The notes under the pieces were generated by a model that worked only from the letters and a program-made list of their open reading frames with translations, was not told the origin of the DNA and searched no databases. The position numbers and the translations under genes were made by a program. From an uncultured Candidatus Saccharibacteria bacterium (lineage in GTDB: Bacteria > Patescibacteriota > Minisyncoccia > Phycocordibacterales > JAKFXT01): 64,000 nucleotides of DNA. The stretch is from assembly GCA_964385825.1 (NCBI GenBank), contig CAYLPX010000001.1, positions 84,493-148,492 on the forward strand, given 5' to 3'. Positions 1,074-21,530 of this stretch are shown here, piece by piece (position 1 is the first letter of the stretch; each line of letters opens with the position of its first letter).

Positions 1074-1148
1074 GGCCCTATCGTCTAACGGCTAGGACGG
1101 CACCCTCTCACGGTGCAAATCGGAGTTCGATTCTCCGTAGGGTCGCCC
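1074..1148 (+). tRNA. tRNA-Glu (anticodon CUC)
   Basis: Cloverleaf built by hand. Acceptor GGCCCTA pairs with TAGGGTC. D stem is GTCT/GGAC. Anticodon stem GCACC/GGTGC carries loop CTCTCAC. T arm is CGGAG-TTCGATT-CTCCG. Discriminator is G. Confidence 0.85.
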
Positions 1149-5470: not shown

Positions 5471-6562
5471 ATGTCTACAACCACTATTGTTATTATCTTT
5501 GTTGCACTCCTTTTTCTACTCCTTAATGGCTTTGCTTTTTGGGCAGTACTTCGTCGTATGGGTACTAAAGATGAGGGGGAGGGGGATAGTGGCATGAAGC
5601 TCTTACTTGAGCAAATGAATGAGCTTACGCGTCGCCAAGGTGACCTTACGAGCATGATGGATAAGAAGTTGCTTGAAAGCTCCCGCGCCATGACCGAGTC
5701 ACTTCACCGTACCGGTGAAACTACTACGCGTATTATTACTGATATTACCGAGAAACTCACCCGACTCGACGAAACCAATAAACAGGTAGTCTCTTTTGCT
5801 GATCAACTTCAGTCTCTCCAGGATATTTTGAAGAACCCGAAACAGCGAGGAATACTTGGTGAGTATTATCTTGAAACACTACTTAAAAATGTACTGCCTC
5901 CTGGGGGGTATCAAATGCAGTATGGGTTTAGCGATGGAGAGATAGTTGATGCAGTGGTGTTCGTGCAGGATAAGATTATACCTATAGACTCTAAGTTCAG
6001 CTTGGAGAACTACAATCGCTGGGTAGAGGAGAAGAACGAACTTGAGAAAATCCGCTTTGAGAAAGTGTTTGTCAACGACCTCAAACTGCGCATACAAGAA
6101 ACTGCTAAATATATTCGCCCGGGAGAAAAGACCATGGACTTCGCGTTCATGTTTATCCCGCATGAGGCTATTTACTATGATTTACTGGTGAACAAAATCG
6201 GCGGGGTAGATGAGAGTAGTGACAACCTTATTCAAAGAGCGGCTACAAAATATAAAGTAATTATTGTTTCTCCTACTTCGTTCCTCGCGTACCTTCAGAC
6301 GGTGCTTCAGGGACTTAAGGCACTAGCCATAGAGGAGAAGGTGGTTGAGGTCATAAAGCGAGTAGGAGAACTTGGTAAACATATGAAGAGCTATGAAGAG
6401 TATCATGGCAAACTCGGAAATGCGCTTGGAACAGTGGTGAATCACTTTAATGCATCAGGTAAGGAGTTTAAAAAGATAGATAAAGATGTGATGCGTATCA
6501 CCGGCGAGAGTATGGATATAGCGACTATTGCACTTGAGGGGCCTGAAAAAGATGTGGAGTAA
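5471..6562 (+). CDS. rmuC: DNA recombination protein RmuC
   Basis: N-terminal TM segment, a long coiled coil and a C-terminal RmuC nuclease-like domain. Confidence 0.85.
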   Translation: MSTTTIVIIFVALLFLLLNGFAFWAVLRRMGTKDEGEGDSGMKLLLEQMNELTRRQGDLTSMMDKKLLESSRAMTESLHRTGETTTRIITDITEKLTRLDETNKQVVSFADQLQSLQDILKNPKQRGILGEYYLETLLKNVLPPGGYQMQYGFSDGEIVDAVVFVQDKIIPIDSKFSLENYNRWVEEKNELEKIRFEKVFVNDLKLRIQETAKYIRPGEKTMDFAFMFIPHEAIYYDLLVNKIGGVDESSDNLIQRAATKYKVIIVSPTSFLAYLQTVLQGLKALAIEEKVVEVIKRVGELGKHMKSYEEYHGKLGNALGTVVNHFNASGKEFKKIDKDVMRITGESMDIATIALEGPEKDVE

Positions 6563-7508: not shown

Positions 7509-7874
7509 CTAGCCTCTCCTGCGCAGGTGATGAGTCAGTGCCATGACACTGAAAACAAGGGTTGATATGTGGAAGGTGCAGTAGGCAATACTCCCGGCCA
7601 GCAGCCACACAACCATGTGGCTAAGAAGTTGCACTACAATGTCCGGATGCTCCATCCCCACATTCTTGATTGAAAGAATACCAATCAGGAACAATAGTGC
7701 ACAGTACACAAGGACAACCCTTTCCCCAGCCGTTTTCGCAGTTATCTCCTTTTCCGGGGCTAAATGTACAACCAGGATGGTGAGCCCCCAGAGGAGAAGC
7801 CCGAGATGGACCCCTCCTGTGGTGGCAATGATGACGAAGGTCTGGATTGACCAAGCAAATTCAAGCTCACTCAT
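7509..7874 (-). CDS. hypothetical polytopic membrane protein
   Basis: ATG at 7874 with AAGGAAGG SD. About 4 TM segments. It is translationally coupled to the upstream gene with a 1-nt gap. Confidence 0.5.
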   Translation of the reverse strand: MSELEFAWSIQTFVIIATTGGVHLGLLLWGLTILVVHLAPEKEITAKTAGERVVLVYCALLFLIGILSIKNVGMEHPDIVVQLLSHMVVWLLAGSIAYCTFHISTLVFSVMALTHHLRRRG

Positions 7875-7875
7875 C

Positions 7876-8223
7876 TCACACCTTCCTTTTTCGTACGAGG
7901 AGCAGAACAATGACAGCACTCCCGATTACGAGATATGCTCCTAAGCTGACAATGAGGCCATCTAAAAGAGCGTTCCCGATCATTTCCCCGCTCGGAGGAC
8001 CCACACCCTCATGGTGCGTGAGGCGGGTATAGGAATGAGTGAAGAAGACCCCGACGCTGAAGACGCCGGCGATGAGTAGCTGGAATTTCCCCCGCGTAAG
8101 TTTCAAAAAAGTCCTTACCTCCGACAGAATTGCGTCGATCCCGAAGGTAAAGGGCATTCCCATCACAGCAAGGGCCACAATCACTTTCCCGTGACCCGCA
8201 AGTACTTCCAAGATTTCAGGCAT
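7876..8223 (-). CDS. small membrane protein, possibly Mrp/Mnh antiporter subunit G-like (weak)
   Basis: ATG at 8223 with GAGGAG SD. Two or three TM segments. The motif YTRLTHHEGVGPPSG resembles the MnhG YxRxHAAGKxxTLG region. Confidence 0.35.
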   Translation of the reverse strand: MPEILEVLAGHGKVIVALAVMGMPFTFGIDAILSEVRTFLKLTRGKFQLLIAGVFSVGVFFTHSYTRLTHHEGVGPPSGEMIGNALLDGLIVSLGAYLVIGSAVIVLLLVRKRKV

Positions 8224-16178: not shown

Positions 16179-16778
16179 ATGATTGCATTAGACATTGAAG
16201 CTTCAGGCGTGGATTACCATAAAAACTCCATTATAAGTATAGGGGCACTTGATCTGGAAAACCCTACTAATAGGTTTTATGGAGAGTGTCGTGTGTGGGA
16301 TGGGTCTCATATTGCAGAGGATACGATGGTTTTTTTGCAAATGACTGAAGAGCAGTTTCGGGATCCTACGAAGCAGAGCGAGGCAGAATTACTTGTGAAA
16401 TTTTTAGCATGGTGTGAGGGGGTGCGAGATCGAACTTTTTTAGGTCAAAATATTTCATTTGATCGGGACTATATAAAAGCTGCTTGTGAACGTATACACC
16501 ACGACTATCCTTTTGCGCACCGAACGGTAGATACCCACTCTCTTTGTTATATGCACATGGTAAAGAGGGGAGTTACTCCACCCTTTAATGAAGAACACCA
16601 CCGTACTGCCCTTAATTTGGATGCTATTCTCCTGTACTGTGGAATTCCTGAAGAGCCTCAACCCCACAATGCATTAACAGGAGCGCTTTCTCATGCTGAG
16701 GTGGCCTATAGATTACTCTATGACAAAAAGTTTTTGCCAGAATTTGATAAGTTTGAAATTCCGTGGCAAAAGGCGTAG
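16179..16778 (+). CDS. DEDD-family 3'-5' exonuclease domain protein (DnaQ-like)
   Basis: Exo I motif IALDIEASG and an HNALTGAL Exo III-like motif (partly degenerate). Confidence 0.5.
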   Translation: MIALDIEASGVDYHKNSIISIGALDLENPTNRFYGECRVWDGSHIAEDTMVFLQMTEEQFRDPTKQSEAELLVKFLAWCEGVRDRTFLGQNISFDRDYIKAACERIHHDYPFAHRTVDTHSLCYMHMVKRGVTPPFNEEHHRTALNLDAILLYCGIPEEPQPHNALTGALSHAEVAYRLLYDKKFLPEFDKFEIPWQKA

Positions 16779-16789
16779 GATACTACCAT

Positions 16790-16999
16790 ATGGAACATAA
16801 TCTAAAAAAGAAACTTTATTTATCAGTAACAGATAGGAAAATTGCTGGTGTTCTCGGGGGTCTTGGAGCATATTTCGAAATTGACTCAACTTTGCTCCGT
16901 TTAGCCTTCCTGCTCCTTTTAGTCTGCACCGCTTTTTTCCCAATGACTGTTTTCTATCTTCTTGCGTGGGTGGTTATCCCTGAGCAATCAAACTCATAA
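16790..16999 (+). CDS. PspC-domain membrane protein
   Basis: The DRKIAGVLGGLGAYFEIDSTLLRL PspC signature followed by one TM segment. Confidence 0.6.
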   Translation: MEHNLKKKLYLSVTDRKIAGVLGGLGAYFEIDSTLLRLAFLLLLVCTAFFPMTVFYLLAWVVIPEQSNS

Positions 17000-17011
17000 T
17001 TAGAAAGTGTT

Positions 17012-17039
17012 AAAAAAACTGTCCAAAGACAGTTTTTTG
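17012..17039. terminator. bidirectional terminator
   Basis: aaaaaactgtc-caaa-gacagtttttt. Confidence 0.6.
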
Positions 17040-17084
17040 TTTTTAATATTGGAAGTAGTTTGTGTGTTATACCCACTCCTTTTA

Positions 17085-17100
17085 GTCGGGATATTGGGAG
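17085..17100 (-). repeat. degenerate copy (15 of 16 nt) of the tRNA-Pro 3' end, 25 bp downstream of the tRNA
   Basis: gtcgggatattgggag compared with gtcgggatactgggag at 17123-17138. Confidence 0.5.
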
Positions 17101-17123
17101 CGTTACGTCTTTTCAAAACCCTG

Positions 17124-17195
17124 TCGGGATACTGGGAGTCGAACCCAGTGTTATGTGCACCCCATGCACATGTGTTACCGGTACACTATACCCCG
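17124..17195 (-). tRNA. tRNA-Pro (anticodon GGG)
   Basis: Minus-strand cloverleaf. Acceptor CGGGGTA pairs with TATCCCG. D stem is GTGT/ACAC. Anticodon stem TGTGC/GCACA carries loop ATGGGGT. T arm is CTGGG-TTCGACT-CCCAG. CCA is not encoded. Confidence 0.85.
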
Positions 17196-17298
17196 ACAGG
17201 ATTTTTAAAAGCCAGAATTTTTTAATTGTATACAATATAAAAAAATTCGTTCTGTATGTCCACTAAGTAAAGAAGTTTACTTAGATGGCTATCCAGAA

Positions 17299-17335
17299 CC
17301 CCCATGCACGTGTGTTACCGATACACTATACCCCG
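17299..17335 (-). repeat. copy of the tRNA-Pro 5' half (acceptor 5' strand through the anticodon loop; about 35 nt, 2 mismatches plus 1 extra C), 108 bp upstream of the tRNA and 3 nt from the stop of the adjacent gene
   Basis: cccatgcacgtgtgttaccgatacactataccccg compared with 17161-17195. Confidence 0.7.
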
Positions 17336-17338
17336 TAC

Positions 17339-17893
17339 TTATTGCTCAATAGTATAAGACTTATAAAGCGTAACTGGAAGTCCCGCAGCTTCAGCTTTTT
17401 TTATAGTGTCACCAGTACCATAACTCTTGTTTACATGGAAGGCATAGACTTCATCGGAAAAAGTAACTTCTTCAATATGTCGTAGATCATACTGGTCTTG
17501 GGTTATGTCCCCACTGTCTTTGCGTACTTCAAACATTGAACTTGGATTTCTTTGTTTTATTATTTTTAAAATATACTCAATGTTATCTATGTCAGCATCA
17601 GTAATAGTTTCTGGTTTCCAGTTTTTGCGATAGTCAGCGATGAAATGGTCGAGTCGAGCAGGGATAAAGATGCGGATGCGGGTGCAGTCAGGGTTCAATT
17701 TTACAAACTCGTCCATAGCGAAATAGTCTACGCCGGTAGCTCCTCCAGTGACAAGGCCATCACCACGTTCAAAAACTTTGCGGGCCGCCTCGCGCACGTC
17801 TTGCTCCACTTCTTTATTCCATAGTCGCCATGACCCAGTGAAAATTACCCAGCGCATAAGGTATGAAAATACCATATTTTTGCCATTTTTCAT
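17339..17893 (-). CDS. DprA/Smf-like (SLOG-type) Rossmann-fold protein, single domain
   Basis: VIFTGSWRL, GDGLVTGGATGVDYFAMDE and IRIFIPARLDHF match the three conserved DprA/LOG Rossmann motifs. ATG at 17893 lies directly after the DoxX terminator. Confidence 0.45.
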   Translation of the reverse strand: MKNGKNMVFSYLMRWVIFTGSWRLWNKEVEQDVREAARKVFERGDGLVTGGATGVDYFAMDEFVKLNPDCTRIRIFIPARLDHFIADYRKNWKPETITDADIDNIEYILKIIKQRNPSSMFEVRKDSGDITQDQYDLRHIEEVTFSDEVYAFHVNKSYGTGDTIKKAEAAGLPVTLYKSYTIEQ

Positions 17894-17908
17894 AGAGGTG
17901 CTGAGATA

Positions 17909-17939
17909 CAAAAAAACCGGAGAAGACCCCGGTTTTTTT
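17909..17939. terminator. bidirectional terminator (aaaaaaaccgg-agaagacc-ccggttttttt)
   Basis: Read directly. Confidence 0.6.
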
Positions 17940-17960
17940 GTTTTGAATGTCAGCTTCGGA

Positions 17961-18425
17961 CTACATTCCCATACCGCCAGTCATGCCGCGGTTCATCATT
18001 TTGTTGTCCATGCTCATCTTGTCAGCACCATGTTTTGCAACAAGGAGAAGGCCACCGATGATTGCTAGGTTCTTGAGAGCGCTTACCCAATCAACTTGGA
18101 AAGGAACTCCAGCTGGAGCTAGCATACTGGTGTGAACAATAAGGGTTGCTATAACGGTGAAGATAATAAGCATCCATGAAGCAAGGCGTGTCTTGTAGCC
18201 AGCAAGGAGTAGAAGCGCTCCACCGAGTTCAAAGACTACTGCAAGGAGTGCCCAAGCTGTACCAGGGAGCACTTTAAGCGCTGTACCTAGGTTGCTTGCA
18301 AGACCAGAGAAGCCCATGACTTTCTGATAGCCTGCCATAATAAAAACTATCGCTATAAATACGCGAGCAATAACTGGAGCCCACATATCTACCTTATCGC
18401 ACCACATCTTACACTTTTCCATCAT
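17961..18425 (-). CDS. DoxX-family membrane protein
   Basis: Four TM segments and a DoxX-like AGYQKVMGF segment. Confidence 0.55.
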   Translation of the reverse strand: MMEKCKMWCDKVDMWAPVIARVFIAIVFIMAGYQKVMGFSGLASNLGTALKVLPGTAWALLAVVFELGGALLLLAGYKTRLASWMLIIFTVIATLIVHTSMLAPAGVPFQVDWVSALKNLAIIGGLLLVAKHGADKMSMDNKMMNRGMTGGMGM

Positions 18426-18587
18426 ATAGATACTTATAATTAATATTCAATAATGAGAGTATTATACTCTAAAAAATGAAGTTGTGGGGCAGGGGAGTGG
18501 ATAAGGTTTATGCTTGGCGTGGCATTTACGAAAATATATTTTCGTGTCGTTATGCCGCCATAAAGAGATGGTGTTATACTTTACTGC

Positions 18588-19130
18588 ATGAAAAAGAAGA
18601 CAGGAGCTGTTAGAAGGGATTCGCAAATAACAGGCTACTGGCTTATGAAGTCAGAGCCGGAAGAGTATTCTTTTGAAGATCTAGAAAATCATAAAAATGG
18701 GGGACGGTGGGATGGGGTACGGAATTACCAGGCCCGGAATTTCCTTCGGGATATGAAGGTTGGGGATAAAGCCCTCTTTTACTACTCCAGCGTTAAAGTT
18801 CCGGCCGTAGTCGGCGTAGCGACCATTGTAGGGGCTCCATATCCCGATCCTACGCAGTTTAACCCCAAGAGTAAGTACTTTGACCCAAAGGCCACAAAAG
18901 ACCGTGCCATATGGGTTTCTAGGGATTTGGCACCTGTGGATAACTTTTTAAGGGGTAAGGAGGGTAGGGGAGTAACGCTCCCCCAAATGAGGGCGAATCC
19001 TAAGCTTTCAGGTATGAGGCTTCTTGCGAGGGGTAACCGGCTCTCAGTTATGCCGGTTACTAAGGCCGAGTTTGAAGAAATAGTAAAAATGGCCAAAAGG
19101 AAGCTCCGGGACCCCCTCTTTTGGGATTAA
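18588..19130 (+). CDS. EVE (PUA-like) domain protein
   Basis: YWLMKSEPEEYSFEDL...WDGVRNYQARNFLRDMKVGDKALFYYS is a classic EVE/DUF55 signature. Confidence 0.65.
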   Translation: MKKKTGAVRRDSQITGYWLMKSEPEEYSFEDLENHKNGGRWDGVRNYQARNFLRDMKVGDKALFYYSSVKVPAVVGVATIVGAPYPDPTQFNPKSKYFDPKATKDRAIWVSRDLAPVDNFLRGKEGRGVTLPQMRANPKLSGMRLLARGNRLSVMPVTKAEFEEIVKMAKRKLRDPLFWD

Positions 19131-19257
19131 GGATGCGGGAATTAATACCTAGCTTGATAAAATTTCGATAGTCTAGTCGAGTAGAAAATCGTGAAACTAT
19201 GGCTCTGTAGAGCCATTTTATGCCTATTGACACCCCCCTAAAATCCTTGTCTAACCA

Positions 19258-19286
19258 TTGACAAAATAAACCAAAGGTGATACAAT
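19258..19286 (+). promoter_or_regulatory. near-consensus sigma70 promoter TTGACA-17-TACAAT driving the 19359 gene
   Basis: Read directly. The leader is about 65 nt. Confidence 0.5.
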
Positions 19287-19358
19287 AATAACAAATCAGA
19301 GTATACCTCTGGTTCTTTCATTTAAGGCTGATCAATTCAATTTCGGAACAACTTAAGT

Positions 19359-19952
19359 TTGAGGGCCAAGCGCCGCATCCCTAAGTGCCTTCTATGGAGA
19401 TTACGAGCTAATAATTGGCTTATTTTAGGAATAGCAACAGGAATTCTTCTCTTCATCTCTAACGCTACTAATAATAATGCTGAAGCCGCTCTACAACCTG
19501 TAGTAGCTACAACTTCAGTTAAGGTAGTAGTTAAAGATAAGAACCCAGTACGTTCAGAATCAAATAAGGGAACTCTTAAGAAAGAAACCCCAGTAGTATT
19601 GTCAGCAAGTTCGACCGAAGTTATCGTTCGTGCGTACTTTGAGGACATACCACAGTTAGCTGAAGTTTCTCGTTGTGAATCAGAATTTCACCAGACTAAT
19701 AAGGATGGAACCATCTATCGTGGTGAAGCCAACCCTAAAGACGTTGGTGTGATGCAAATCAATGAATTCTATCACGCAGAAACTGCAAAGAAGCTTGGTT
19801 TTGACATCTACACGCTAGAAGGAAATATGGCCTATGCTCGTTATATCTACGAGAAACAAGGTATAGCTCCGTGGAGCGCATCAGCTCCATGTTGGAACAA
19901 AAAAGTTTCCCAAATCAATCTAGTCTCAAACGGGCTTGCACTCAATAAGTAA
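19359..19952 (+). CDS. secreted lysozyme-like / SLT-type transglycosylase domain protein
   Basis: Signal peptide. CESEFHQ...GVMQINEFYH matches the SLT-type E-S...GxMQ catalytic motif. The start uses TTG. Confidence 0.45.
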   Translation: MRAKRRIPKCLLWRLRANNWLILGIATGILLFISNATNNNAEAALQPVVATTSVKVVVKDKNPVRSESNKGTLKKETPVVLSASSTEVIVRAYFEDIPQLAEVSRCESEFHQTNKDGTIYRGEANPKDVGVMQINEFYHAETAKKLGFDIYTLEGNMAYARYIYEKQGIAPWSASAPCWNKKVSQINLVSNGLALNK

Positions 19953-19964
19953 AAGACCCAAAAC

Positions 19965-19995
19965 AAAATCCTCCGGCCAAAAGTCGGAGGATTTT
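19965..19995. terminator. bidirectional terminator (aaaatcctccg-gccaaaagt-cggaggatttt)
   Basis: Read directly. Confidence 0.6.
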
Positions 19996-20086
19996 GTTTT
20001 GGAAAACTACACGAAATACAGGGGGATCATGGACGGGGACATGGGTTTTATAAGTTTCCTTCTCTAGTACTAATGTTCGCACAATA

Positions 20087-20196
20087 TATCTTTTGCGTAA
20101 ATAACTATAGGCTATGCCGAGGAGAAAAACTTATCCACTTCCCCGTCTGTAGTAATTTTTTAGTTTGGACGCGGTTCGTTATTTACGCAAAAGATA
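20087..20196. repeat. 18-bp perfect inverted repeat (tatcttttgcgtaaataa / ttatttacgcaaaagata) with a 74-bp spacer, followed by a nested 11-bp inverted repeat gcatgttgtgc/gcacaacatgc (20199-20241) and three copies of gcacaaNat
   Basis: Exact matches read from the sequence. No convincing ORF spans the region. Confidence 0.6.
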
Positions 20197-20306
20197 GCGC
20201 ATGTTGTGCAACAAAGGGTTCCCCTATATCGCACAACATGCTTGGCAAAAAACCTTCTAATTGCATGAATGTTTTTTGCTTAAAATGCACTTAAAATTTT
20301 AATACA

Positions 20307-20333
20307 AAAACAGGGGAGTCTCTCCCCTGTTTT
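20307..20333. repeat. palindromic hairpin aaaacaggggag-tct-ctcccctgtttt, copy 1 (immediately 3' of the 2-TM gene stop; acts as a bidirectional terminator)
   Basis: Identical to copy 2 at 21496-21530 except for one loop base. Confidence 0.7.
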
Positions 20334-20335
20334 AA

Positions 20336-21457
20336 TTAGTCACCAGTTTTTTGAGTTTTAAGTAGATTTACTAACTCTAGTATTAATTGCTTATCATATT
20401 TAATTTTGTTCTCAATTACCGGCTCCGTAAAAATTACGTTTAAACTTCTTAATAATATTGGATCTTTTGCGGGCTCATTTGATGGAAATTGATTTCTCAG
20501 ATTTATCATTGTCTGAGTCGCAACATCTTTAAAGGAGTATGCCTCATAAAGGCGTCGATGGTTTGAATATTGTTGTGCGCTGAAAATAGTAAAGTAAGCT
20601 GGAATTAGAAGAATAGCGAAATGTAAAAGGGCTGATCCTATACTTATATTCTCACCGCTACGTATTAGTAATAGTAAACTAAGGGCAACAATTGTTGCTC
20701 CAAACAATGAGCTAAGCAGGAGCCAAAATATAGAGCCACTAGGATACGGGATTTTAAATTTATTAAAAAATGGGGTCTTTAGCCAATTAATTTTAAGTGT
20801 TTTGTGTTCTGCGGCTTTTTTAGCCGAATCAGTTGCATTTGCTTTTAATATTAAACTCACTGCCTCCTTATCTTTTTCAATTAAGTCCCTTGCACGTTCT
20901 AAGGCTAGTTTAATTAAATCCGCATTCTCAATTAATTCATCGATTAGCTCCTCTGTTGGTGAAAATTTATTTTTTAATTCTGTAAGTTCAGCTGCAATAT
21001 TTTTAATATTATCTTTTTCAATATCCCACTCATTTTTAAAAGATTTTAAAATTACATCGTATTTATTTTCGAATAAATCTTCAATAAAATTTTTATCTAG
21101 AAAGTCTGATTGCTGGGTGAATAAAAAATGATAACGGCCTAAGCTATTATAAATTTCAACCTCAAGACCTTTTAAATCATTAATTAATTCTTGTCTACGA
21201 GGTACATCTAGGAATGTAATAACTCTACTATCGATAAAGGTGAGTAAGGATTGAAGGGAATTGTTAATTTGGCTTTGAATTGTTGCTGGGAGTGTGCTAA
21301 TTATCTGATTTGATACTATATTGTCAAAAAAACTTTTTAATCTTTTAAAAACTGGTTCAGTATCGCTAAGGTCGCCAGTGGGACCAAGATCTTTTCTACT
21401 AAGTCTTGCCCAGTCAATTAAACCATAGCGCTCAAATTTTTGGTATATATCTTGCAT
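20336..21457 (-). CDS. hypothetical protein (about 373 aa). N-terminal 230-aa helical cytoplasmic domain, two TM helices and an 80-aa C-tail. Very AT-rich codon usage.
   Basis: Long ORF with local GC near 30%, well below neighbouring genes. TM segments are WLLLSSLFGATIVALSLLLLI and LLHFAILLIPAYFTIF. The start is ATG 21457 or TTG 21463. Confidence 0.55.
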   Translation of the reverse strand: MQDIYQKFERYGLIDWARLSRKDLGPTGDLSDTEPVFKRLKSFFDNIVSNQIISTLPATIQSQINNSLQSLLTFIDSRVITFLDVPRRQELINDLKGLEVEIYNSLGRYHFLFTQQSDFLDKNFIEDLFENKYDVILKSFKNEWDIEKDNIKNIAAELTELKNKFSPTEELIDELIENADLIKLALERARDLIEKDKEAVSLILKANATDSAKKAAEHKTLKINWLKTPFFNKFKIPYPSGSIFWLLLSSLFGATIVALSLLLLIRSGENISIGSALLHFAILLIPAYFTIFSAQQYSNHRRLYEAYSFKDVATQTMINLRNQFPSNEPAKDPILLRSLNVIFTEPVIENKIKYDKQLILELVNLLKTQKTGD

Positions 21458-21495
21458 ACTCAATTTAGTCGAAGTCTACACCTGTCCTAAAAAAA

Positions 21496-21530
21496 GTCAA
21501 AAACAGGGGAGCCTCTCCCCTGTTTTTGAC
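21496..21530. repeat. palindromic hairpin gtcaaaaacaggggag-cct-ctcccctgtttttgac, copy 2, with a partial third half-repeat tcccctgttt at 21531-21540
   Basis: Direct repeat of the 20307-20333 element flanking the AT-rich gene. Confidence 0.7.

Follow-up and report, generated by a model that had tools for sequence, protein, structure and literature searches.

Within transfer RNA (tRNA) genes, the anticodon loop and the T-loop are reportedly the sublocations used by integrases, the classes of Williams 2002. Islands and prophages in tRNA genes, bounded by the attachment (att) sites attL and attR, leave partial copies next to an intact gene. Integration-derived tRNA fragments are pervasive in prokaryotes (PMC9897764), and islands at tRNA genes are collected in the Islander database (PMC4383910). 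In Archaea, tRNA genes are disrupted in other ways, as in the multi-intron genes of the Thermoproteales and the split genes of Nanoarchaeum, with their complementary leader and trailer. Patescibacteria, for their part, are rich in tRNA introns (PMC13011429). Here we describe a locus in a 64,000-nt stretch of DNA from an uncultured Candidatus Saccharibacteria bacterium (contig CAYLPX010000001.1, positions 84,493 to 148,492; hereafter the window), where a working tRNA-Pro(GGG) gene appears to lie nested within the remains of an older tRNA-Pro(GGG) gene. Homologues of the window's proteins come from metagenome-assembled genomes of Paceibacteria (Patescibacteria/Candidate Phyla Radiation).

The locus resembles an island or prophage site in having partial copies by an intact gene, boundaries in both loops and variable surroundings; the feature expected of a tRNA-integrated island, an intact tRNA with a displaced direct partial copy, is present. 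It differs in that integrase and cargo are missing, in that fragments occur on both sides, nested and apparently from one gene, and in that a complete tRNA lies inside rather than a partial copy that restores the target. Moreover, the spacers (23–104 nt) are conserved in structure over species-level divergence. With the archaeal disrupted tRNAs the locus and its relatives share inserts in the anticodon loop (and, in the related contig L016, also in the T-loop, at 56/57) and a long helix formed by sequences flanking the junctions. However, the host is bacterial (the tRNA-Pro has C1-G72 and A73), no bulge-helix-bulge motif was seen by eye, the insert is a whole tRNA with the same anticodon, and the outer gene is decayed in the window. 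The tRNA introns of Patescibacteria are alike in phylum and in target, the anticodon loop, but here Rfam returns no group I signature, the insert is too short, and its content is mainly a tRNA.

Between the genes for PspC (16763-16999, plus strand) and DoxX (17961-18425, minus strand) lie one tRNA and one small open reading frame (ORF), which encodes a protein of the SLOG fold. ARAGORN calls tRNA-Pro(GGG) at 17123-17195 (minus strand), and the Rfam tRNA model matches 17124-17195 (minus strand) with 53.5 bits (E 5e-10). We refer to the window species as W and to its sister species as B (L032/L033/L017) and C (L015). Read along the strand of the tRNA, the order is SLOG stop codon, 3 nt, outer 5' piece, hairpin 1, hairpin 2, leader, tRNA, trailer, ACGTAACG and outer 3' piece:

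17300..17335, minus strand: outer 5' piece, positions 1-37 of the older tRNA-Pro, with U15 and C27, ending in the anticodon loop and beginning 3 nt past the stop codon of the SLOG ORF (17339..); direct repeat 34/36, score 62.
17249..17299, minus strand: hairpin 1 (hp1), with a core CUAAGUAAA-CUUC-UUUACUUAG within an outer GUUCUG/CAGAAC stem, from RNA folds; B and C have an equivalent hairpin at the matching place, its stem sequences altered.
17215..17248, minus strand: hairpin 2 (hp2), an A/U-rich stem of 13-15 bp, from inverted repeats and covariation.
17196..17213, minus strand: leader GGCUUUUAAAAAUCCUGU, complementary to the trailer, from an inverted repeat, folds, covariation and duplex energy.
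17124..17195, minus strand: inner (working) tRNA-Pro(GGG), 72 nt, with U27-A43, variable loop UAACA and no encoded CCA, from ARAGORN and Rfam.
17109..17123, minus strand: trailer CAGGGUUUUGAAAAG, which pairs with the leader and lengthens the acceptor stem by ~16 bp, from an inverted repeat, the fold, covariation and duplex energy.
17101..17108, minus strand: outer middle piece ACGTAACG, 8 nt, positions 41-48 of the older copy, with G43 and variable loop UAACG, kept in W, B and C.
17085..17100, minus strand: outer 3' piece, covering the older copy from T-loop to 3' end (positions ~58-73 plus 1); repeat 15/16, score 25. The ~10 nt of T-stem and T-loop that would link it to the middle piece are absent.

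The two flanking fragments and the 8-nt ACGTAACG appear to be one older tRNA-Pro(GGG) gene, split and slightly eroded, with the present tRNA nested inside. The outer pieces carry U15, C27 paired with G43, and the loop UAACG; the inner tRNA has C15, U27-A43 and the loop UAACA. The outer pieces thus covary with each other and not with the inner tRNA, and the shared C27-G43 pair and ACGTAACG place both fragments in one gene. Compared with the inner tRNA of B and C, the outer 5' and middle pieces match at 36/36 and 8/8 positions, and the outer 3' piece matches that of C at 16/16. An acceptor stem formed by the outer 5' and 3' pieces encloses the rest of the module in the minimum-energy fold. Joined as they stand, the outer pieces of W yield no ARAGORN call; with 13 nt restored, ARAGORN calls tRNA-Pro(GGG). 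The intron mode of ARAGORN called no outer tRNA. Judged from these alignments, the working tRNA lies within ~210 bp inside the anticodon loop of the older gene, after position 37. We also observed that the outer 5' piece of W has 0/36 changes relative to the sister tRNA, and that the inner tRNA has changed at 15, 27, 43 and 48.

A repeat search gave the extent of the fragments. The segment 17300-17335 is a 36-nt direct copy of 17160-17195 (tRNA positions 1-36), identical at 34/36 positions (94%), and 17085-17100 is a 16-nt copy of 17123-17138 (T-loop to 3' end), identical at 15/16 (94%); the tRNA is separated from the 5' copy by 104 nt and from the 3' copy by 23 nt. The sequence-only reading had described a tRNA-Pro(GGG) flanked by its own fragments, and ARAGORN, Rfam (53.5 bits), the repeat search and shuffles all bear this out. 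Its 16-nt figure for the 3' copy and its 3-nt distance from the 5' copy to the SLOG stop codon also hold, whereas the 5' copy is 36 nt rather than 35 and the gaps are 104 and 23 nt rather than 108 and 25. Local alignment scores were 62 for the 5' copy and 25 for the 3' copy. Over 300 shuffles of the flanks, the best score averaged 16.0 (standard deviation 2.0), reached 22 at the 99th percentile and peaked at 27. The score of the 5' copy far exceeds chance expectation, and the 3' copy taken alone is borderline; it is found again at the equivalent relative place in a sister species (L017/L032). Shuffles and recurrence in the sister species together rule out a chance origin of the fragments. A third, decayed 3'-half copy, suspected by eye at 17040-17079, did not score beyond chance in the shuffle test.

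An assembly artefact can be dismissed, since eight contigs of independent assemblies carry the module unchanged: 17040-17345 shows 100% identity in 6 independently assembled contigs and in the covered part of 2 more (L022-L031). One further contig (L014) is 99.98% identical to window positions 16382-21521, and the same layout occurs in contigs from independent assemblies of other samples. Alignment found no second tRNA repeat on the far side of SLOG, which rules out SLOG as a cassette between tRNA repeats. The spacers between tRNA and fragments (104 nt and 23 nt) hold no ORF and no cargo. A Pfam scan of the ORFs at 15.6-21.5 kb found no integrase, the neighbours being exonuclease, PspC, SLOG, DoxX and EVE, in agreement with the earlier remark that neither integrase nor cargo lies between the repeats. 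For an attP on a viral element, an exact-match search of IMG/VR with 36-nt and 23-nt patterns returned 0 matches.

Relatives of the locus were recovered by a metagenome scan with a D-arm pattern and by look-ups via the neighbouring exonuclease. They share a backbone of S41 peptidase, L9, L27, a hypothetical protein, exonuclease, PspC, the tRNA-Pro, DoxX, EVE and an SLT-like gene, on to M23. The nest is common to W, B (exonuclease 88% identical) and C (exonuclease 81%). In all three, one can align the junction GGGGG/U and the order 5' piece, hp1, hp2, leader, tRNA, trailer, ACGUAAC, 3' piece. Decay of the outer pieces differs: there is none or one change in W, ~3 changes plus an indel in B, and heavy decay in C. 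On this comparison, the nest is apparently older than the split of the three species. The sequence-only reading had taken the fragments for att duplicates of the present tRNA; they look instead like pieces of one older gene, in a nest that predates the three-species split and whose spacers are conserved.

In the spacers, the sequence has diverged among W, B and C and the pairing has been kept. Covariation was assessed in an alignment of four sequences from three lineages. Of the cells in paired columns, 87% are paired, a share that falls to 36-49% once the partners are slid along by 1-3 columns, and 23 pairs have changed on both sides, compared to 11.9 +/- 2.4 in shuffles. For hp2, 7/13 pairs have changed on both sides and 94-100% are paired in W, B and C. 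Of the 15 pairs by which leader and trailer extend helix 7, 9 have changed on both sides. Covariation in hp1 could not be cleanly counted, as the alignment is out of register in B. The signal is consistent with a module that is old and maintained, although the sample is small.

Leader-trailer complementarity is restricted to nested tRNAs. The duplex has an energy of -13.8 kcal/mol in the W nest, and energies range from -13.8 to -33.8 kcal/mol for five nested tRNAs, compared to -2.2 to -7.2 kcal/mol for 14 others.

The module starts close behind the stop codon of a co-directional gene, 3 nt in W, ~17-22 nt in B and ~10 nt in C; in W the gene in question is SLOG, in both sisters PspC. A promoter-like site close to consensus, TGGACA-17-TATATT (17262->17234), whose -10 hexamer is overlapped by hp2, scored 10/12 in a promoter scan; it had no counterpart in B or C. 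An own promoter, seen in W only, was therefore dropped as a general feature of the module. Given that the spacer promoter is confined to W and that a co-directional gene abuts the module, read-through from the upstream gene is the simplest reading.

Two further nests occur independently of that in W, B and C. In L016, from another lineage (nest at 430-660), a tRNA-Pro with complementary arms of 21 and 19 nt lies inside a different tRNA-Pro allele, at 38/39. The outer gene there has an additional 30-nt insert in its T-loop (56/57); with both inserts removed, it forms a perfect cloverleaf and is called by ARAGORN. Outer and inner genes are different alleles, with differences in the D-arm and the variable loop. 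At the same chromosomal site, with near-identical flanks, L021 (645-716) has the inner-type tRNA alone. In L001 (11380-11690), a tRNA-Ser(GGA) lies inside a tRNA-Ser(GGA), accompanied by a hairpin and an extended leader-trailer helix; taking out the insert leaves a complete outer tRNA. Apart from tRNA, Rfam returned no family on the inserts (window 16500-19500; L001, L003, L005, L016 and L018), and E-value scans of the same set gave no match to the group I intron covariance model, which rules out a group I intron or other known RNA. By-eye inspection, the sole means used, revealed no bulge-helix-bulge motif (3-4-3) at the L016 junctions or in W.

Flanking fragments are not peculiar to this locus, since partial copies flank most tRNAs sampled. 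Five of seven unrelated control tRNAs have a strong same-strand partial copy within 500 nt (<=500 nt; scores 30-40); flanking tRNA fragments are a clade-wide habit. One such control is the tRNA-Glu(CTC) of the window (1074-1147, plus strand). It is followed by a stem-loop at 1148-1188, an antisense copy of the T-loop and 3' end at 1191-1210, then two hairpins, and a perfect 20-nt sense copy of the T-loop-to-3'-end segment (CGATTCTCCGTAGGGTCGCC) at 1270-1289. Folding of the whole region (1074-1290) is much stronger than in shuffles, with z -7.9, and Rfam has no family that matches it. In species C (L047:4000-4420), the tRNA-Glu element lies in inverted orientation with respect to MurF, and a unit of the 3'-end copy and ~170 nt is tandemly duplicated. 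L046 (3871-4341; a 79% MurF relative) lacks the element and has, beginning 9 nt past the tRNA, a gene for a 129-aa SET-domain protein. By eye, the element has short motifs in common with the insert after the tRNA-Glu of L003.

We propose, with a probability of about 0.6, that an older tRNA-Pro(GGG) gene was interrupted in its anticodon loop by a tRNA-bearing segment and is now a pseudogene, and that the nest predates the split of W, B and C and has been kept since. A segment of ~210 bp with a complete tRNA-Pro(GGG) would have entered after position 37, and the older gene would then have lost ~13 nt (positions 38-40 and 49-58). The segment would have supplied the working tRNA, the two hairpins and the pairing leader and trailer that extend the acceptor stem by ~16 bp. 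Transcription would come by read-through from the abutting protein gene, SLOG in W and PspC in the sisters, as far as gene order can indicate. The leader-trailer clamp may allow folding and excision of the inner tRNA by preventing wrong pairing with the near-identical outer 5' half, and it possibly also offers a double-stranded processing site. Most likely, the segment derives from a putative integrating element that disrupted the gene, carried a replacement tRNA and was later deleted down to the needed part.

Several points weigh against this proposal. No element, integrase or empty/filled-site pair was found for the nest of W, B and C, and hence the insertion itself is something we infer. 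The covariation comes from three lineages (four sequences) only. The unchanged outer 5' piece of W is odd for a pseudogene, given the decayed outer pieces of B and C, and it may point to constraint, recent renewal by recombination, or another function. The promoter-like site in the W spacer means that read-through from SLOG is not required there. Finally, the boundaries coincide with the two classic places of integrase crossover, the anticodon loop and the T-loop, and are compatible with two separate integrase events.

Such events would be two independent att scars: a crossover in the T-loop leaving the 3' end, and one in the anticodon loop with 5' displacement leaving the 5' half, the elements then being almost wholly deleted. 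Besides the boundaries, this account can draw on the pervasiveness of integration-derived tRNA fragments in prokaryotes (PMC9897764; Islander, PMC4383910), on the variable gene content and orientation of the locus, and on the 3'-end copies starting in the T-loop that follow several other tRNAs. We consider it unlikely. Both fragments are tied to one gene by ACGTAACG and C27-G43, the outer pieces in L016 and L001 rebuild a complete tRNA, as one insertion predicts and two crossovers do not, and the sequences between the pieces are structurally conserved rather than decaying; nor is there an integrase or cargo nearby, or a viral contig with this tRNA by exact-match search. A purely local origin, by tandem amplification of a tRNA-Pro unit and deletion of redundant parts with no foreign DNA, is suggested by the tandemly duplicated 3' end and ~170 nt downstream of the C tRNA-Glu (L047), and by the probable identity of outer and inner Pro genes when the nest of W, B and C formed. 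Yet the sequence upstream of the 5' piece (the 3' end of SLOG or PspC) is unlike the spacer, and that after the 3' piece is unlike the trailer. Simple tandem duplication is ruled out by this mismatch between flanks and spacers. Given also that L016 carries different alleles as its outer and inner genes, and that several precise deletions would be required, we regard a local origin as improbable indeed. Both accounts, two integrase scars or local duplication with deletion, are less parsimonious than insertion of an element.

The arrangement could alternatively be functional, with an intron-like insert whose removal regenerates the outer tRNA, so that one gene would yield two tRNAs, or with the outer 5' half acting as a regulatory or decoy RNA in the 3' untranslated region (UTR) of the upstream gene. 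In favour are the intact outer genes of L016 and L001, the lack of any change across the 36 nt of the W outer 5' half, the conserved spacer structure and the abundance of tRNA introns in Patescibacteria (PMC13011429). Against this, the outer gene of W, B and C is short by 10-13 nt and cannot make a tRNA, Rfam shows no group I intron or other family here, and by eye no bulge-helix-bulge motif is seen at the L016 junctions. No tRNA splicing endonuclease is known from bacteria. There is very little to recommend a functional arrangement. Equally far-fetched, in our judgment, is the defence or conflict islet (17.0-21.5 kb) in which SLOG, EVE and an AT-rich protein with two transmembrane (TM) helices would act together. 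What speaks for it are the SLOG fold, weak PADLOC matches (PsyrA E 0.005, PbeC E 0.0017), the absence of both SLOG and the two-TM gene from C at these sites, and an EVE gene 2 kb from SLOG in L003. However, EVE, DoxX and the SLT-like gene are syntenic core genes, no SMODS, TIR or SLATT domain was found among the neighbouring ORFs, no neighbour of SLOG recurs in 13 genomes, SLOG divergence resembles that of GyrB, and SLOG and the two-TM gene lie 2.4 kb apart and differ in base composition.

A broader idea goes beyond insertion into one older gene, and we hold it only tentatively, as rather doubtful. Paceibacteria might harbour an undescribed invader of tRNA genes, a clamped cassette with a complete tRNA, often with 1-2 hairpins in front, that inserts into the anticodon loop of a same-isoacceptor gene and replaces that gene; or, alternatively, the intact nests might be spliced, as a new type of bacterial tRNA intron. 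With an invader, the nests of W, B and C and those of L016 and L001 would be successive stages in which the outer gene is intact, decaying and, as in L021, removed. The 3'-end copies at tRNA-Glu, tRNA-Ile and others might then be related T-loop events.

Fragments of tRNA genes are usually taken as footprints of integrated islands. Here they would be the remains of a predecessor around a working tRNA, with flanking RNA structure apparently kept by selection, and the same design is seen at other tRNAs of this phylum, whose tiny genomes would be expected to shed useless DNA. If general, this would be a route by which tRNA genes are replaced or move in Patescibacteria and would explain assembly breaks at these loci, and both fragment-based island finders and tRNA counts for genome completeness could be misled in this phylum.

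The surroundings of the nest vary, as the sequence-only reading had anticipated: SLOG occurs at the site in the window species only, a histidine phosphatase takes its place in C and nothing does in B, the tRNA flips, and the AT-rich gene is absent in C. SLOG lies between module and DoxX in all strains of the window species. In B, no gene occupies the site and PspC and DoxX are ~350 nt apart; in C, the histidine-phosphatase-family gene starts 37 nt after the tRNA; in L039 there is a 229-aa ORF and no tRNA. The tRNA points toward PspC in W, L036 and L037/L038 and away from it in B, C and L044/L045, and this mixed orientation among six species implies several inversions. Compared with B and C, the nest of W is inverted as a whole, along with its outer pieces, and in L037 a decayed 3'-end copy follows the tRNA. 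These data support the tRNA-Pro locus as a small rearrangement hot spot; no particular recombinase is indicated.

Seven contigs from related species (L036, L038, L040, L041, L043, L044 and L045) end within ~50-500 nt after the exonuclease or PspC gene, at or near tRNA-Pro, which suggests that repeats or strain polymorphism cause assemblies to break at this locus. In most of the relatives examined, L039 and L040 excepted, tRNA-Pro is preceded by the gene for an RNase T/Rv2179c-like 3'-5' exonuclease and by PspC (window 16179-17195), and both are co-directional with tRNA-Pro in B, C and L044. A role for the exonuclease in trimming this tRNA is conceivable.

The remaining features between the module and DoxX are the following:

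17339..17857, minus strand: SLOG ORF, 172 aa from MRWVIFTG, with in-frame starts upstream that reach 17911; from homologues, AlphaFold2 and Foldseek.
17905..17945, no strand assigned: stem-loop with an A-run and a T-run (AAAAAAACCGG-AGAAGACC-CCGGTTTTTTT) between the DoxX stop and the SLOG start; from sequence and weak Rfam matches.

The weak Rfam matches align to the terminator-like stem only, and a similar stem-loop follows DoxX in B; the stem-loop is a probable DoxX terminator.

The SLOG ORF is predicted to encode a single-domain Rossmann protein of the SLOG fold, in the DprA clade. The AlphaFold2 model has a predicted local distance difference test (pLDDT) score of 92.7, and Foldseek aligns it with probability 1.0 and template modelling (TM) scores of 0.63-0.65 to YpsA (2nx2) and Helicobacter pylori DprA (4ljk). 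Further Foldseek matches include TM1055, ThsA-SLOG, ShosA and LOG, the last of these weak (E ~0.02), and the closest viral models are DUF2493, DprA-like and cpYpsA proteins. The motifs GSxR, GGATGVD and IPARLD, pointed out earlier, are present, and GGATGVD is nearly invariant among homologues; the earlier call of a single-domain SLOG/DprA-type protein agrees with these motifs, the confident model and the Foldseek matches to YpsA and DprA. At the sequence level there was no Pfam hit at E<=0.1 and no NCBIfam hit, phmmer against PDB sequences gave noise only, and PHROG gave weak matches to a 'GTP-binding domain' family and a DprA-like family. Relatives at 37-41% identity score 39.8-42.3 bits with DNA_processg_A (PF02481), compared to a cut-off of 29.6, below which the window protein itself falls. 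Several distant relatives that pass this Pfam model are fused to ASCH, methyltransferase, MazG-like or Mur-ligase domains.

As a single domain (172 aa), the protein is not DprA proper. Nor is it LOG, since it lacks the PGGxGTxxE catalytic motif of LOG/PpnN, where the alignment shows TGGATGVDYFAMDE. With the SLOG superfamily (the DprA Rossmann domain, YpsA, DUF2493/YspA-cpYpsA, LOG and the SLOG domain of ThsA) it shares the fold and the glycine-rich GGxxGxD loop, and it differs in lacking a Pfam or NCBIfam match, the flanking domains of DprA, the LOG motif and any linked effector or sensor. We can only say that it is predicted to bind or process a nucleotide or nucleic acid.

There are 287 close homologues (66-80% identity, ~172 aa), all starting MRWVIFTG or MKW..., and 195 clusters match in a representative library of 1.84 billion proteins; the next relatives are at <=45% identity. 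In 13 species-level genomes SLOG stands alone, with no recurrent neighbour. Where it is syntenic, its identity is 75-78%, compared to 78-79% for GyrB, so by divergence it appears to behave as a tightly constrained gene and not as a fast-evolving defence gene. In the 150 nt upstream of SLOG in these genomes (L001-L013; window 17858-17900), we mostly see a TTGA... -35 element and an extended -10 element (TGnTATAAT-like). In most cases, only ~7-10 nt separate the end of the promoter from the ATG, which suggests that SLOG mRNAs are leaderless or near-leaderless. A general tie of SLOG to tRNAs is ruled out, as SLOG adjoins a tRNA in L003 alone and in none of the other 12 genomes. One genome (L004) has two SLOG paralogues (6001-6516 and 7628-8143), 1.1 kb apart and 77% and 60% identical to the window protein. 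In L040 (3621-4082; a 68% relative), a different SLOG-type protein (Pfam LDcluster4; NCBIfam TIGR00730 family) stands at the place of PspC after the exonuclease.

The EVE call made earlier stands, with PF01878 passed at 5.9e-50 (169.5 bits, positions 2-145 of 145), and DoxX passes PF07681 with 65.7 bits. Like stand-alone EVE (PUA-like) proteins, the window protein matches the Pfam model over its full length (5.9e-50); its gene encodes a single domain, is conserved in syntenic position, and shows neither fusion nor linkage to restriction or effector domains. In B and C, synteny marks EVE, DoxX and the intervening SLT-like gene as core, and, on this gene order, EVE and DoxX appear to be ordinary conserved neighbours. 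The AT-rich gene (20336-21463, minus strand; GC content 0.29-0.35) encodes 375 aa, coiled-coil-like towards the N terminus and with two TM helices at the C terminus. The gene is absent in C, where unrelated ORFs occupy the site, and is a second, separate variable spot. Its product had no domain match in Pfam and, even at E<=10, no SLATT match, and a SLATT identity was rejected on that result.

The sequence-only reading had also seen a small defence islet here and had suggested SMODS, TIR or SLATT partners. Neither Pfam nor PADLOC found any of these among the ORFs at 15.6-21.5 kb, and the PADLOC matches, PsyrA for SLOG (E 0.005) and PbeC for the two-TM protein (E 0.0017), are too weak to use. 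With EVE and DoxX belonging to the core, SLOG as slow as GyrB and without a conserved neighbour in 13 genomes, and no convincing PADLOC match, the islet is not supported; a SLOG plus EVE defence annotation, tempting as it is, falls away for lack of support. In L003 (3491-6510), a genome otherwise non-syntenic, an EVE gene 48% identical to that of the window lies 2 kb from SLOG. Between the two are tRNA-Glu, tRNA-Ser and tRNA-Val, SLOG starting 52 nt after tRNA-Val, and this proximity could be coincidence (~8%, a rough estimate).

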